Source: Nanobdellota archaeon
GTDB lineage: Archaea; Nanobdellota; Nanobdellia; Woesearchaeales; JAHWHD01
Length of the DNA: 36,182 bases
Assembly (NCBI GenBank): GCA_034722435.1
Contig: JAYENX010000036.1
Location: 1 to 36,182, forward strand
Direction: 5' to 3'
Of this stretch, positions 2,048 to 30,893 are shown in pieces (within the stretch, counting starts at the first letter, position 1; each line of letters opens with the position of its first letter). The translations under genes were made by a program, and so were the position numbers. The notes under the pieces were generated by a model that did no database searches, was not told the DNA's origin, and saw nothing but the letters and a program-made list of their open reading frames with translations.

Positions 2048-3331
2048 TTATTCCTTTTTAACAACTGATATACACATACCAGCTGCTACTGTGGTACCTG
2101 AGTCACGGATAGCGAACCTTGAAAGTTGCGGAATCTCTTTCTGTGTCTCAATTACCATTGGTTGTACAGGTCTAATCTTAACGATTGCTGCATCTCCGTT
2201 TTTAATGAAGTCAGGATTCTCTTCTAAAACTTCACCTGTAGCCGGATTCAACTTTTTCTCAATTGCTAAAATTTGACATGCAACTTGTGCAGTATGAATA
2301 TGGAATACTGGACAGTAACCAACTGTGATAACACTAGGATGGTTAAGTACAACAATCTGTGCAGTGAACTCTGTCGCAACTGTTGGTACGTTACTTGCAA
2401 GACCCATTACATCTCCTCTTGCTATATCTTTCTTACCAAATCCTCTGATTGAAAGACCCACGTTATCACCTGGTTCAGCACTTGTTTGCTGCTCGTGATG
2501 CATCTCTATAGATTTACACTCGCCAGGTACACCTTTACCTTCTCTACCGGGTACAGCTATAACTTTGTCACCAACTTTAAGAACTCCTGTTTCGATTCTT
2601 CCAACTGGAACTACACCGATACCTGTGATGTTATATACATCCTGAATAGGTAATCTTAGCGGAAGACCAACTGGTTTATCAGGTTCTTTAAGTTCATTGA
2701 TTGTCTCTAGTAATGTTTTACCTGAATACCATGGTAAGTTTTCAGATTTTTTAACAACATTATCTCCTGGTAATGAAGCAATAGGTATGAAAGGTACTTG
2801 CTCAGGATTGTATCCTACAGTCTTAAGTAAAGCTCCCACTTGTTCTTTAACTTCATTAAACTTTTTTTCATCAAACTTTACCATGTCCATCTTATTGACA
2901 GCAACGATAAGTTGTGAAACTCCAAGAGTTCTTGATAAAAACACGTGCTCTTTTGTCTGTGCCATGATACCATCATTAGCAGCTACAACTAGAACTCCTG
3001 CATCAGCTTGTGATGCTCCTGTAATCATGTTTTTAATAAAATCCTTGTGCCCTGGTGCATCAATTACTGTAAAATAATATTTATCAGTTTCAAATTTCTT
3101 ATGAGCCAGGTCGATAGTAACTCCTCTCTCCTGTTCTTCTTTTAGATTATCCATTACGAAAGCAAACTCAAATCCGCCTTTACCAAGCTCTTGAGCTTTT
3201 TCTTTTAACTTTCTCATGGTGGACTCTTCAATAGTTCCACTATCGAAAAGTAATCTACCTACGCTCGTTGATTTACCGTGATCAACATGTCCTACGAATA
3301 CTAAATTAATGTGTGGTTTAGTTTTAGCCAT
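2048..3331 (-). CDS. tuf: Elongation factor 1-alpha (aEF-1A)
   Basis: [28 protein letters not shown]; C-terminal RFAIRD; SD GGAGGGAGTGA upstream. Confidence 0.99.
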
Positions 3332-26565: not shown

Positions 26566-27680
26566 TTTGACTTCATCACATGCACACCGTTCCAATCATC
26601 ACCAGGAGGATTTTTCATAAACTCTGTACATCTACCTACATACATTTTAGTAGGTCCATCCTTGGGAAGACTTTCAAAAACTGCTAAAGCATTTGAAAAC
26701 CTTTTCTTCCTGTACATGCTAAGAGCATTTTTCCACTTTTCAACATGCTCATAATCTAGAAGGACTTCATGGATTATAATCGGAACTGTCTTACCTTTCA
26801 CAATAACTTTATCCAGTTCTCTAACTATGAAATGCCCTTTCACCTGTTCATATATATTATCGCTTATTATTATCTCTGTACCATAGAACTTGTTTGAACT
26901 CTCAAGCCGTGCAGACAGATTAACATGATCTCCTAGACAAGTATAATCAAATCTTTGCTCTGAACCCATGTTTCCGACAATAACGTCGCCTGAGTTTAAT
27001 CCAATACCAATTTTAACTTCTGGAAATCCTCGAGCACTCCAATCTTTATTACATTTTTTTAAAGCTTTAATCATGTCAATAGCACTTTGTACTGCTTGCC
27101 TGGTATGTTTAGGATCGTCAAGAGGTGCATTCCAAAAAGCCATGATTGCATCTCCTATAAACTTGTCCACAACACCCCTATTCTCTAGCACAATATCCGT
27201 CATCGCAGTAAGATATTCGTTTAACAACTCTACTAATTTCTCAGGACCTAACTTTTCAGATATAGTCGTGAATCCTCTTATATCAGAAAAAAGAATTGTA
27301 AGATTCTTCTTCTCACCACCCAGTTTTAATTTTGCTGGATCTTTTAACATTTCATCAATTATTGCAGGCATCACATATTGCTTGAAAGCGCTCTTTATTT
27401 TTTCCTTCTCTTTCTGTTCCTTTCTCCGTTTAGTATCCAGATAACTATACAAAAAATAAATTACTAAAGGAATAAAAGTGAAAAGAAATCTGTACTGTGT
27501 AAAGAAGTTCTTAACATTTGCTCCATAGAAAGATATCCACGTATCTGTAAATATTAGGAGAACAACTGAAAGAAAAACTATATACTTCATATCATCTGTC
27601 TTTCTGTACATTGCATGAAGTTTTACAACACCATACGCACAAATTATTGCTACTAGTATTGTTATTACAAGTTCAATCAT
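26562..27680 (-). CDS. Membrane-anchored class III adenylate cyclase
   Basis: 3 N-terminal TMs; LFSDIRGFT, DKFIGDA, YTCLGD.VNLSARLE (both metal Asp, Lys/Thr ATP-specifying residues, Asn/Arg); TPR-like C-terminal tail. Confidence 0.93.
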   Translation of the reverse strand: MIELVITILVAIICAYGVVKLHAMYRKTDDMKYIVFLSVVLLIFTDTWISFYGANVKNFFTQYRFLFTFIPLVIYFLYSYLDTKRRKEQKEKEKIKSAFKQYVMPAIIDEMLKDPAKLKLGGEKKNLTILFSDIRGFTTISEKLGPEKLVELLNEYLTAMTDIVLENRGVVDKFIGDAIMAFWNAPLDDPKHTRQAVQSAIDMIKALKKCNKDWSARGFPEVKIGIGLNSGDVIVGNMGSEQRFDYTCLGDHVNLSARLESSNKFYGTEIIISDNIYEQVKGHFIVRELDKVIVKGKTVPIIIHEVLLDYEHVEKWKNALSMYRKKRFSNALAVFESLPKDGPTKMYVGRCTEFMKNPPGDDWNGVHVMKSK

Positions 27681-28753
27681 GAAAAAACCCCTACAATCTT
27701 TTTAATTAGCTTCGATAACCAGCTCGGACTATCCGCGGCCGCAGCGGCCAATGTATCAAAATTTTGTACATCTTTGCTAACTGTGAAAGAATAATCTTTT
27801 GTCTGACCCTGAGGTATATTCTTGAATGCCCATTTAATGACTGGATCTTCTTCAATTACTTCCGGTTCCTCTGAAAAATCCAACATTTTAACATTCTTAG
27901 CTATATCTTTTGGAACCACCAATAACAATTCAAGACCGTTAATGTTTTCTTCTTCAGCAGTAACTGAATACGTTAACTTTGATTTATCAATACTTTTATC
28001 ATCATTTATAACTTCGTAAATGTTCTTTACAACTTTAACATCTGGATGTCTTTTACCCTTAATCTGTCTCAACATTTTCGTTTCAATCTCTTGCTTCTCA
28101 TAAACCAGTGTTCTTTTATCAGAATCTACTTTATTTATTTCTGGAAGAAATTTTGCAGCTTCACCCCGTTTTCCCTGTTGCAATAACTCGATACCTTTAA
28201 CAAAGTCATCAACATCAATACCCAGGTCTAGAAGATCTTTCTTATTAAGTTCAATATGTTGTAGTTCGGGGTCTAACCTTTCAATCTGAACATTCATCTG
28301 TTCATTTACAAGCTCGGCAGCATCTTCATCTGACAATAAACCACTTAAACCGCCTGCAGCTCCTGAACCTCCCTCCGATTCAATAACTGTGGTCTTTGTA
28401 TAACGTTTATGCACGTACTCTTTATCGTAATAATCAAATATCAGGGTTGTTTTAAAATTACCGCTAGGCATTTCCATAGGTACTTCAAATATTGCACTAT
28501 CATGTGTGCCAATTCCACTTAATTTGTTATAGAACACCTGTTCAATTACCGGATTCTCAGAATCTACATCAATATTTTTGATAAATAATACATTATTCTT
28601 GACAATCTCAACTTTGACCATTGTCCCTGGCACAAACTCTATGTTAGAACCAATTTCAGCACTGTCAACTTTAATCTCAATATCCTCTAACGCATAAGCT
28701 AGTGGAAGAATCAATAACAATAAACTTATCATTAAAACCTTTTTCATAAACAT
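27677..28753 (-). CDS. Secreted/surface protein
   Basis: Signal peptide MFMKKVLMISLLLLILPLAYA; C-terminal VPKDIA...P.VIEEDPVIKW segment; ATGA overlap with the cyclase. Confidence 0.8.
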   Translation of the reverse strand: MFMKKVLMISLLLLILPLAYALEDIEIKVDSAEIGSNIEFVPGTMVKVEIVKNNVLFIKNIDVDSENPVIEQVFYNKLSGIGTHDSAIFEVPMEMPSGNFKTTLIFDYYDKEYVHKRYTKTTVIESEGGSGAAGGLSGLLSDEDAAELVNEQMNVQIERLDPELQHIELNKKDLLDLGIDVDDFVKGIELLQQGKRGEAAKFLPEINKVDSDKRTLVYEKQEIETKMLRQIKGKRHPDVKVVKNIYEVINDDKSIDKSKLTYSVTAEEENINGLELLLVVPKDIAKNVKMLDFSEEPEVIEEDPVIKWAFKNIPQGQTKDYSFTVSKDVQNFDTLAAAAADSPSWLSKLIKKIVGVFS

Positions 28754-28795: not shown

Positions 28796-29278
28796 TTATT
28801 TTATTAACGAACCCATAACATCTTGGAAAAAAACACTTTCTCCTTTATAGAATATTCTTTCTTGGCCCTTGAAATAATCATAATCTCCTTCCATTTCAAA
28901 AGTATATCTAAAATCTCCTTCAATGAACTCTTTTGGACCCCTGAACGGCATATCATCATCAAAATTCATCAAAGCTTTTTTCAAGAAAGGAAATGCCCGG
29001 GTTTGAAAAAAGTCATCAGCATATTTTGAATTATACTGTCCTTGATATGCCATAGCCCAAATAGGTTTTCCTTTTAAGAAAACAACCTCTCTTCCAGGCG
29101 CTTGTGAACGTCCAGCATAAGAATCATGATAACTTAAATCTCCTTCAGAAAAATCATAATCGTAATGACCTTTTAAAATAGATACTTCGCATTTGTATTT
29201 TTGTTGCACTTCTTTTGGAGCTGCATAAGTATTCCTGTGCGCTTTTGCAATGAATTTTAAAAGTATTTCTTTCTCCAT
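28796..29278 (-). CDS. DUF5680-like protein
   Basis: Y.DSY.G....GREVV..KGKPIW.M.Y.G...FLKKAL....PFRGP..F.EGD..Y...EGD...F.G.E.I. Start set at 29278 because the track start lies inside the tRNA. Confidence 0.8.
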   Translation of the reverse strand: MEKEILLKFIAKAHRNTYAAPKEVQQKYKCEVSILKGHYDYDFSEGDLSYHDSYAGRSQAPGREVVFLKGKPIWAMAYQGQYNSKYADDFFQTRAFPFLKKALMNFDDDMPFRGPKEFIEGDFRYTFEMEGDYDYFKGQERIFYKGESVFFQDVMGSLIK

Positions 29279-29304
29279 TTTTTTAGTTGTAAGTTTAAAA
29301 AAAG

Positions 29305-29473
29305 TGAGCCCGCAGGGACTTTCGAAGCTGAGCATATCGGTTGTTTGACTTTATGCTCTAACTATTCGAACCCTGGTCGTCCGGTATCTTCTTACCTCCT
29401 AAAAGGTTATCCGAAGCCGGAAGCCCTATTTATCCTACTGGTAAAACCAGTCACCAGACTAGGCTACGGGCCC
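29305..29473 (-). tRNA. tRNA-Arg(UCG) with three introns; mature length 74 nt, CCA not encoded
   Basis: Exons 29473-29454, 29429-29411, 29385-29365 and 29318-29305 splice to GGGCCCGTAGCCTAGTCTGGATAGGGCTTCCGGCTTCGGACCGGACGACCAGGGTTCGAATCCCTGCGGGCTCA, a full cloverleaf. BHB-like motifs at all three junctions. Confidence 0.9.
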
Positions 29474-29495
29474 ATCATATATTGTAAAATAGAAG

Positions 29496-29503
29496 TTTAT
29501 AAA
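29496..29503 (-). promoter_or_regulatory. TATA box of the tRNA-Arg gene
   Basis: AAAAAGC-TTTATAAA ending 23 nt upstream of tRNA G1. Confidence 0.7.
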
Positions 29504-29552
29504 GCTTTTTATCAAAAACTATCGTGCTAAATGTTGATAGCATTATTACATG

Positions 29553-30893
29553 TCAGAATAACAGTATGTGCTCTCTAAAGAAATTCATATATCGGGGATA
29601 CTTGTTAATTTTATCAATTCTTGACCTGATTTTCTTTTTATACTTTTTTAACTCTTCTTTATCCATACCTTTAGAAACTTTATACGTTATTCTCTCAGGT
29701 AAAAGTTTTCTTTTTTCTTCTATAACTTCAACAACACCGAACTTTTCTGGTTCATTATATACTGGGGACCCTTTCTGTAACCCGAATATTGATATGGAAA
29801 CTAAGTCGATATTATATGTATTATCTTCTAAAAATTTAACCGTTATTTCTGCTTCTTCTTTGGTCTCTGTAGGAAACCCCAGCATAATATAGACTACATT
29901 TTTTATCCCTAAGTTATGCGAGTTAACTAAAACATTTCTAACTTCATCTACTTTGGTGGTTTTATTCATTAAATCTAGAATCCTTTGACATCCCGACTCA
30001 ACACCCCACGTGATTGTCTTACAACCTGATTCATGCATAACTTTCAATGTTTCAAGGTCGTAATCTTTTGTAGGACGTAACTGGCACGACCATTTTTTAT
30101 TATACTTCTTCATTATATCTGCTATCTTCAATATCCTTTGCTTATGTACCATGTCGTCAATGATGAAGAAATATTTATGTCTACATTTTTTCACAGTCTC
30201 TTCAATATTTTTAAGATTATATTCCAAATATTTTTCTCCTTTATGATGCGTACAAAAAGCGCAATTCGCATAGTAGCAACCATGCGACGTTTTTAACGGA
30301 ACAACCCCTTCATTAACAAAATATGCATCTGAATTAAATATTTCGTAGTCTAATGAATAATCGCATTTTACTTTATCATATTCAATCTTTCCAGAAATAA
30401 ACTCAAGCAACTCAAACTCATTCTTCAAATAATAATCTGCTTCTTCAATCAGGTTATCATTTACAGCAGGCCCTCCCACTATTGTTTTGATACCTAACCT
30501 CTTCAACTCTTTAATCAAAGCGATTGTATAGAACACTTGACTAGAGTATACAATACTAAAACCTACAACATCAACTTTTTTATCAACAATCAAAGAAATC
30601 ATTTCATCAAACAGTTCGGGATTTTTATTATCAATAACTGCTCTGTTATTTATAGAATAACATTCTCTTGAAACTTTATCATACTCTTTCACTCTTAAAT
30701 CATAATCTGATAAATCCTGAAGACTACGAAAATATTCTCTATATTCCTTAAACTTTCTATTATGGAATTCTACATTAAGATCTAAAACTGAACTCTCAAC
30801 ATTATTAGCTTTAAGAAATGCATGTAGATTAACTAGAGAATATGAAACTATCGCGGGCGTACAGAATGGCGGGTATACTAATAGAAGTTTCAT
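29553..30893 (-). CDS. Radical SAM protein with B12-binding-like N-terminal domain
   Basis: LLVYPP, VGFS, VGGP, SHGCYYANCAFC (CxxxCxxC), DD, GVESG.QRILDLMNK, IMLGFP.ET. Confidence 0.9.
   Translation of the reverse strand: MKLLLVYPPFCTPAIVSYSLVNLHAFLKANNVESSVLDLNVEFHNRKFKEYREYFRSLQDLSDYDLRVKEYDKVSRECYSINNRAVIDNKNPELFDEMISLIVDKKVDVVGFSIVYSSQVFYTIALIKELKRLGIKTIVGGPAVNDNLIEEADYYLKNEFELLEFISGKIEYDKVKCDYSLDYEIFNSDAYFVNEGVVPLKTSHGCYYANCAFCTHHKGEKYLEYNLKNIEETVKKCRHKYFFIIDDMVHKQRILKIADIMKKYNKKWSCQLRPTKDYDLETLKVMHESGCKTITWGVESGCQRILDLMNKTTKVDEVRNVLVNSHNLGIKNVVYIMLGFPTETKEEAEITVKFLEDNTYNIDLVSISIFGLQKGSPVYNEPEKFGVVEVIEEKRKLLPERITYKVSKGMDKEELKKYKKKIRSRIDKINKYPRYMNFFREHILLF

Follow-up and report, generated by a model that had tools for sequence, protein, structure and literature searches.

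A stretch of 36,182 nucleotides (nt), covering positions 1 to 36,182 of contig JAYENX010000036.1 in a Nanobdellota archaeon of the order Woesearchaeales (assembly GCA_034722435.1; hereafter, the window), was found to carry a 169-nt tRNA-Arg(UCG) gene on the minus strand at 29473-29305, of which 95 nt belong to three introns with bulge-helix-bulge (BHB) motifs. We are highly confident that this is the one functional tRNA-Arg(UCG) gene of the genome and that its three introns are spliced by the endonuclease EndA. This reading is based on the cloverleaf formed by the exons, a blind search that recovered the same introns, a gap-free alignment to orthologs, covariation, a census of the genome's tRNA genes, a flanking TATA box and T tract, and the presence of genes for EndA and the ligase RtcB. 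The genome under study (G000) is a draft of 60 contigs that is 94.5% complete, with ~2% contamination and 33% GC.

Exons and the mature tRNA

An initial annotation of the window proposed a tRNA-Arg(UCG) gene interrupted by BHB introns at 19/20, 37/38, and 59/60, and every coordinate and motif that it gave was found in the sequence. The four exons are as follows.

29454..29473, minus strand: exon 1, 20 nt; acceptor 5' strand, U8 A9, D-stem 5' strand, and D-loop to G18 G19; gap-free against uninterrupted orthologs.
29411..29429, minus strand: exon 2, 19 nt; A20, D-stem 3' strand, anticodon stem 5' strand, and loop to G37, including the anticodon UCG.
29365..29385, minus strand: exon 3, 21 nt; A38, anticodon stem 3' strand, 4-nt variable region, T-stem 5' strand, and T-loop U54-A59.
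29305..29318, minus strand: exon 4, 14 nt; U60, T-stem 3' strand, acceptor 3' strand, and discriminator A73.

Removal of 24, 25, and 46 nt had been predicted to leave a canonical 74-nt cloverleaf, and the product spliced in silico was indeed identified by ARAGORN as tRNA-Arg(tcg), with a score of 123.4. The stems of its bracket structure are of 7 bp (acceptor, including one G-U pair), 4 bp (D), 5 bp (anticodon), and 5 bp (T). The product also has G18 G19, A20, U33, a 7-nt anticodon loop with UCG, the T-loop UUCGAAU (GUUCGAAUC), and A73, and its T-loop is of the conserved GUUCRANYC type. CCA is not encoded at the 3' end of the gene. A20 and C35 are arginine identity elements for the arginyl-tRNA synthetases of bacteria and yeast. 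Both bases occur in this tRNA, A20 as the first base of exon 2 and C35 as the middle base of the anticodon.

The gene is silent to standard searches of the unspliced DNA, as the initial annotation had anticipated and as proved true of both ARAGORN and Rfam/Infernal. ARAGORN reported no tRNA anywhere in the window and none at the locus when one intron was allowed, and Rfam returned nothing at the locus at gathering thresholds and only chance matches at E values up to 10. A weak "thermometer" match in the Rfam output is due to AGGAGGU (29394-29400, minus strand), a perfect Shine-Dalgarno-like heptamer within the hairpin of intron 2 that is probably coincidental.

BHB motifs of the three introns

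All three introns have the 3-4-3 BHB arrangement, in which a 4-bp central helix is flanked by 3-nt bulges on opposite strands. Their positions and motifs are listed below, with a slash in each bulge marking the proposed cut.

29430..29453, minus strand: intron 1, 24 nt, D-loop, 19/20; central helix GUCU (29459-29456)/GGAU (29435-29432); bulges GG/U and AA/A.
29386..29410, minus strand: intron 2, 25 nt, anticodon loop, canonical site 37/38; central helix CUUC (29416-29413)/GAAG (29391-29388); bulges GG/A and AU/A.
29319..29364, minus strand: intron 3, 46 nt, T-loop, 59/60; central helix UUCG (29370-29367)/CGAA (29324-29321); bulges AA/U and AG/U.

The exon-side helices are 4 to 5 bp each and correspond to the anticodon stem for intron 2, the T-stem for intron 3, and the D-stem in a register shifted by one step for intron 1. 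On the intron side, intron 1 forms a 5-bp hairpin (ACUGG/CCAGU) beyond a G.A mismatch; intron 2 continues as U-A, A.A, and ACCU/AGGU, with five of six positions paired; and intron 3 forms a 4+7-bp hairpin with one bulged A, its 7-bp stem being GAGCAUA/UAUGCUC. A single structure holds all three BHB motifs at -53.2 kcal/mol with every pair valid. Since each motif occupies an arm of its own and a single fold accommodates all three, no order of splicing is imposed. The 169-nt precursor folds at -63.7 kcal/mol, versus -47.2 ± 4.2 kcal/mol for dinucleotide shuffles (z = -3.9). The BHB form is not the minimum-free-energy structure, as expected, because nearest-neighbor energies penalize bulges. No C/D-box pairs were seen in the introns when these were inspected by eye, and the introns looked too short to hold small functional RNAs.

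Blind search and shuffled control

The introns were also sought without use of the annotated coordinates. GC-rich, mostly intergenic islands were scanned for pairs of segments able to form helix/3-nt bulge/4-bp helix/3-nt bulge/helix, up to three compatible BHB candidates were spliced out, and the products were scored by ARAGORN. A first screen of 847 GC islands was too unspecific and was replaced by one of 119 mostly intergenic islands. The top solution at the locus consisted of exactly the three introns 29453-29430, 29410-29386, and 29364-29319. The 320-nt tile contains 11 strict candidates, of which these three took first, joint second, and fifth place (the last with the same score as fourth place); intron 2 had the highest BHB score of the tile (28). 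When each bulge was cut after its second nucleotide, a rule applied blindly, the mature sequence obtained was the same as that of the orthologs described below. When the search was run on 151 shuffled tiles, no tRNA was obtained, versus 24 on the real tiles.

Orthologs with zero to three introns

Orthologs were retrieved by BLAST of the locus against 60 relatives, and the fetched loci were passed through the blind splice pipeline. Genomes G023, G051, and G007, which represent other families of the same order, each contain an Arg(UCG) gene. The gene is uninterrupted in G023 (L017:377-451), has a single 17-nt intron at 37/38 in G051 (L015), and has two introns in G007 (L004), one of 17 nt in the D-loop and one of 44 nt in the T-loop, but none in the anticodon loop. 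No gap is needed to align the spliced G000 sequence with any of the three. The bases at each junction are invariant, and substitutions in the D, anticodon, and T stems compensate one another. The D-loop intron of G007 occupies the same site as intron 1, and its central helix is compensated (U16 to C, matched by A to G in the intron strand), being GCCU/GGGC versus GUCU/GGAU in G000. The 37/38 intron is present in G000 and G051 and absent from G007 and G023. Since the same gene has zero, one, two, or three introns among relatives, its introns have been gained or lost within the order. Two low-scoring "Arg(tcg)" solutions, in G046 (L010) and G026 (L025), were probably mis-solved and were not used.

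Some of the relatives are unpublished genomes, namely, G001 and G002, together with G122 and G133 within the covariance-model tally given below. The results that draw on them are the ortholog search in G001 and G002, the three-intron Arg-CCU gene of G001 (L019), and some entries in the collections of T-loop, D-loop, and anticodon-loop introns (L009, L012, L019, and L020). The ortholog series (G007, G023, and G051) and the intron family alignment (G007 and G015) are independent of them.

A family of T-loop introns

Intron 3 (TAGTT...AGCTTCGAAAG) is a member of a sequence family of T-loop introns of 43 to 47 nt. The other members are as follows.

C46:6377-6437, G000: Arg-CCU.
C25:7065-7125, G000: Leu-UAA.
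C16:4546-4605, G000: Arg-UCU.
C52:1977-2040, G000: Arg-GCG.
L004:1515-1575, G007: Arg-UCG.
L006:1500-1561, G015: Arg-UCU.

The 43- to 45-nt introns of Arg-CCU, Arg-UCU, and Leu-UAA in G000 and of Arg-UCG in G007 likewise start with TAGTT and end with AGCTTCGAAAG. The Arg-UCU intron of G015 differs from the family ends at two bases of its 3' end, and the Arg-GCG intron is a more distant member. A loop motif is conserved around CAAY.ACCGAGA. The family thus spans four arginine isoacceptors (UCG, CCU, UCU, and GCG) and Leu-UAA, and all of its members were seen at 59/60. Identity over the intron interior is 58 to 86% for the core members, and the introns of Leu-UAA (G000) and Arg-UCG (G007) are 86% identical despite the unrelated bodies of their tRNAs. 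Arg-UCG's own copy in G000 has diverged, with 50 to 67% identity to the other core members.

The seven sequences were aligned and inspected for covariation. Across the T-stem, the central helix, and the intron hairpin, 92% of the alignment cells were paired, and eight pairs had changed on both sides. None of 500 shuffles reached the observed score, and controls in which the pairing was slid reached at most 62%. A covariance model of the family unit scored the Arg-UCG copy at 76.3 bits and gave matches of up to 80.9 bits. It matched 45 of 150 sampled genomes of the order at an E value of ≤0.01, with full-length matches of >50 bits in about a dozen families; because the model includes the T-arm, weaker and shorter matches may be T-loop introns from outside the family. 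The 25 T-loop introns gathered from G000 and its relatives are all inserted at one site, and almost every one ends in the GAAAG that the motif demands.

Likenesses were also observed among introns at other sites. The D-loop introns of Arg-UCG (24 nt) and Arg-CCU (~96 nt; L035, G000 C46:6150-6500, about 71-166) have both ends in common (GACUGGUU... and ...ACCA..GGAUAA), and one seems to derive from the other by insertion or deletion. Arg-CCU itself has three introns at the same three sites in G000 (L035) and G001 (L019:426-580), two genomes of the genus. Its D-loop intron is 21 nt in G001 versus ~96 nt in G000, and the 44-nt T-loop introns of the two genes differ strongly in sequence. This comparison points to fast intron turnover between close relatives.

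tRNA genes across the genome

Only 10 tRNAs in G000 pass the Rfam cutoff, and ARAGORN with introns allowed makes 15 calls, some of them dubious. With BHB-aware splicing, at least 24 tRNA genes were solved with confidence; 3 are intron-free and 21 are interrupted, with 33 introns in total. The first BHB filter was too strict for this census (15 loci) and was relaxed. The counts are a lower bound, with several isoacceptors unsolved and the ambiguous loci C8:22108, C26:12225, C31:35786, and Arg-UCU at C16 (score, 101) left out. Three genes have three introns (Lys-UUU, Arg-UCG, and Arg-CCU), and the noncanonical intron sites concentrate at 59/60 and in the D-loop. The accumulation of introns in a DPANN lineage, which the initial annotation had inferred from this one gene, is thus borne out by splicing in silico, the ortholog alignments, the covariation, and the census (21 of 24). 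The introns of this gene are typical of its lineage.

Two further calls were made by ARAGORN with its -i option, tRNA-Gln(ttg) at C13:7566-9132 and tRNA-Lys(ttt) at C59:9940-11773, with "introns" of 1,473 and 1,742 nt. These are either false or tRNA genes with large inserts, such as an intron bearing an open reading frame (ORF). On contig C46, just upstream of position 3177, a run of N adjoins the intron-free tRNA-Thr(UGU) gene, and its promoter region is unreadable.

Splicing enzymes

The genome contains one EndA gene (C58:50280-50933; L001:1477-2004, minus strand), whose likely start gives a protein of 176 amino acids (aa) with the domains PF01974 (99.9 bits) and PF02778 (55.3 bits). In our own reading of the alignment to Methanocaldococcus jannaschii EndA (1A79), the catalytic Tyr/His/Lys triad is in place. 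The best solved relatives are the Nanoarchaeum equitans alpha subunit (3IEY_A; E value, 1e-35) and the M. jannaschii alpha4 enzyme (1A79; E value, 1e-31). EndA is colinear with the latter (169 versus 168 aligned residues, with one 1-residue indel) and has equal Tyr-to-His spacing. Relatives at 70 to 84% identity are 166 to 240 aa long, all contain both domains, and are named Candidatus Woesearchaeota or Nanoarchaeota.

Loops associated with altered specificity were sought in these alignments. In N. equitans EndA, a Lys/Arg-rich insertion around the catalytic His comprises residues 90 to 98 (PMC3488258); the six-residue Lys/Arg-rich loop is missing from the G000 enzyme, which shows a 2+4-residue gap against 3IEY_A precisely there. 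The inserts of the ARMAN-2 enzyme are also missing, 4FZ2 having 4+3 extra residues at the ASL region and 5 at the second loop. The loop specific to Crenarchaea (CSL) is missing as well, as judged from the colinearity with M. jannaschii alpha4, which leaves no room for an extra loop, and not from a direct alignment to Aeropyrum pernix. No second EndA-like gene or beta subunit was found by phmmer with the alpha sequence against six-frame ORFs or by searches for the Pfam N- and C-terminal domains at E values up to 10, in an assembly that leaves ~5% of the genome unassembled. One candidate for a beta subunit (C30:972-1451; phmmer E value, 0.064) was rejected as a PUA-like ORF on inspection by eye. 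RtcB ligase is encoded at C25:36993-38276 (566 bits). The EndA gene is the divergent neighbor of a gene for a 322-aa metallo-beta-lactamase with a tRNase Z N-terminal domain (PF13691, 28.4 bits; L001:1474-2947 on C58), and thus two tRNA-processing nucleases adjoin on this contig.

It had been proposed at the outset that a gene with three introns needs a broad-specificity splicing endonuclease. This was not upheld, since the sole EndA found is a plain alpha-type protein with neither specificity loops nor a beta subunit, and all of the motifs are 3-4-3. Alpha4 enzymes require strict 3-4-3 motifs (PMC3239211), and DPANN alpha4 enzymes with an "L3" loop accompany more tRNA disruption (Kaneta 2018, PMC5829648). 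Since the three motifs of Arg(UCG) are essentially 3-4-3, a strict enzyme could suffice for these introns.

Flanking elements, neighboring genes, and need for the gene

The gene sits in a 274-nt intergenic gap deep inside the 36-kb contig. The flanking features are as follows.

29496..29510, minus strand: putative archaeal promoter; a purine-rich AAAAAGC (29510-29504) resembling a B recognition element, then the TATA box TTTATAAA (29503-29496).
29297..29303, minus strand: run of seven T, one base past the discriminator; likely archaeal transcription terminator.
28796-29278, minus strand: DUF5680 gene (91 bits), with a probable start at 29278.
29553-30893, minus strand: B12-binding radical-SAM gene, with its stop codon ending at 29553.

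The center of the TATA box is ~26 to 27 nt upstream from position 1 of the tRNA, and an identical TTTATAAA box precedes, at an equal distance, five more tRNA genes that are transcribed independently (Met, His, Ser-UGA, Thr-GGU, and Pro). The initial annotation stated that the ORF track runs through the locus; this applies to two longest-ORF artifacts (28796..29335, minus strand, and 29345..29530, plus strand) but not to the real neighbors, which leave the gap free. A 358-aa ORF at 27677-28753 had no Pfam match.

An intronless tRNA-Arg(UCG) gene elsewhere in the genome had been named in advance as a finding that would speak against the interrupted one. Neither ARAGORN, Infernal, nor BLAST revealed a second Arg(UCG) gene in the assembly, which is 94.5% complete. 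Among 739 long ORFs, the codon CGA occurs 997 times and CGG 365 times. tRNA-Arg(UCG) is the only decoder of CGA, and it is probably the decoder of CGG as well, because no Arg(CCG) gene turned up.

Alternative explanations

Several results weigh against a functional gene spliced as proposed. The motif of intron 1 is the weakest of the three, with two G-U pairs in its central helix, a G.A mismatch by the bulge, and a D-stem in a shifted register. An extra U in intron 3 (29325) is able to pair with A58, giving a 5-bp helix and a 2-nt 5' bulge, so that this motif is not perfectly strict. An Arg(UCG) ortholog was not found in the two closest genomes, G001 and G002 (89% and 76% complete), by BLAST with two queries, by an exon 2 pattern with three mismatches, or by synteny via the DUF5680 neighbor; the match to that neighbor was only 41% identical and had no tRNA adjoining it. 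None of the loops that have to date been connected with cleavage of noncanonical substrates is present in EndA. In addition, transcription, splicing, the exact cut sites, the oligomeric state of EndA, and the spread of the introns are predictions made from sequence.

A real gene might have one or more junctions elsewhere, with intron 2 at 38/39, intron 3 at 60/61, or intron 1, given its weak motif, processed otherwise. Given the mature sequence, the boundaries of intron 1 are unique, whereas a 1-nt shift 3'-ward of intron 2 or of intron 3 leaves that sequence unchanged; the initial annotation had rightly allowed such a shift for intron 3, and it applies to intron 2 likewise. The alternative 5-bp helix of intron 3 also leaves some latitude. 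The mature sequence, however, is fixed by the gap-free alignment to uninterrupted orthologs, and BHB geometry selects 37/38 and 59/60 from the slid positions, since no cuts but those proposed follow the second nucleotide in both of the 3-nt bulges. The common site of all 25 T-loop introns, with the GAAAG end on nearly all of them, argues in the same direction. Other junctions are very unlikely.

We consider a decaying tRNA pseudogene, in which insertions have built up and expression or splicing has ceased, just as improbable. For 74 nt to be interrupted three times is extreme, the standard finders are silent, and the motif of intron 1 is imperfect, all of which would suit a relic. Such a relic would nevertheless be the sole Arg(UCG) gene of a nearly complete genome that uses CGA and CGG codons. 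Its exons are without defect, scoring as high as intron-free genes (123.4); all of its insertions keep the 3-4-3 geometry; its predicted promoter and terminator are intact; and the same architecture is found in 21 of the 24 solved tRNA genes. A cloverleaf formed by chance, or a chimera produced in assembling a metagenome bin, for which a 60-contig draft with ~2% contamination gives some occasion, is effectively refuted already by the empty shuffled control and the orthologs, which carry the same exons in several independent genomes, and the locus lies deep in its contig among ordinary genes.

Discussion

For a functional three-intron gene, the following course of expression is proposed. Its own TATA promoter would give rise to a precursor of ~170 nt, in which the D-arm, the anticodon arm, and the T-arm would each be lengthened by an intron hairpin, with the pairs at the boundaries folding as BHB motifs. 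EndA, as a single alpha-type protein presumed to form a homotetramer, would cut after the second nucleotide of each bulge. RtcB would then join the four exons, the introns would probably leave as circles, and CCA would be added later.

The components of this system have precedents, since multi-intron tRNAs, 59/60 introns, DPANN alpha4 enzymes tied to tRNA disruption, and intron families have all been published. In the Thermoproteales, tRNA genes have up to three BHB introns each (Sugahara 2007/2008), with a mean of 0.84 introns per tRNA gene, and the record genome, that of Pyrobaculum calidifontis, has 71 introns in 46 genes (PMC8450103). G000 resembles the Thermoproteales in having up to three protein-spliced BHB introns per gene at both canonical and noncanonical sites, including the D-loop and 59/60, and in its intron density, with at least 33 introns in 24 solved genes. 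It differs in that its host is a DPANN archaeon (Woesearchaeota) and not a member of the Crenarchaeota; in that a single alpha-type EndA takes the place of an (alpha-beta)2 heterotetramer with the Crenarchaea-specific loop; and in that the Arg(UCG) motifs are close to strict 3-4-3 and not of the relaxed hBH/HBh' type.

Among DPANN archaea, ARMAN-2 (Candidatus Micrarchaeum) has disrupted tRNA genes, including some with T-loop introns at 59/60 and 53/54, and 56% of its tRNA genes are interrupted (Fujishima 2011, PMC3239211). G000 shares with ARMAN-2 the DPANN host, the many interrupted tRNA genes, and the T-loop introns at 59/60, but the interrupted share is higher (21 of the 24 solved genes). 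Its 176-aa EndA, with neither the ASL-region insert nor the second insert, is also unlike the three-unit epsilon2 EndA of ARMAN-2 (~390 aa, with an ASL loop). Kaneta 2018 (PMC5829648) included a Woesearchaeota genome in its data set and concluded that unidentified disrupted tRNA genes must exist in such DPANN archaea. Like those genomes, G000 has a single alpha-type EndA and a tRNA set that standard tools do not fully predict; unlike the "L3" loop enzymes of Nanoarchaea and ARMAN-2 in that study, its EndA is without the six residues and the Lys/Arg run. With respect to detection, tRNAscan-SE 2.0 in archaeal mode seeks noncanonical introns by default (PMC8450103).

Intron families in the Thermoproteales have been read as transposition (Fujishima 2010, as related in PMC4090602). 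The T-loop family is like those families in that similar introns occur in tRNA genes of different identity; its particular features are that all members seen occupy one site (59/60) and that the Arg-UCG copy has diverged. Masking of integration targets by tRNA introns, which the initial annotation raised as a possibility for this lineage, is a published hypothesis (Randau and Soll 2008, as related in PMC4090602).

We suggest, tentatively and with somewhat less than even confidence, that an alpha4-like EndA without a beta subunit or any of the specificity loops L1, L2, and L3 supports one of the highest tRNA intron loads known (at least 1.4 per solved gene, with three introns in each of three genes) and that this load is fed by a T-loop family that has near-strict BHB motifs of its own and is spreading to unrelated tRNA genes throughout the order. 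If this is true, intron proliferation at noncanonical sites would need no broadened enzyme, contrary to the usual coevolution account. The pairing of a heavy intron load with a loopless alpha-type EndA calls into question the rule that only broadened enzymes permit noncanonical introns. Because ARAGORN and Rfam are blind to most tRNA genes of G000, apparent gaps in the tRNA sets of DPANN bins are often failures of detection and not biology. Finally, the series of genes with zero, one, two, and three introns within one order, together with the T-loop family, provides a tractable system for the study of BHB intron gain and loss.

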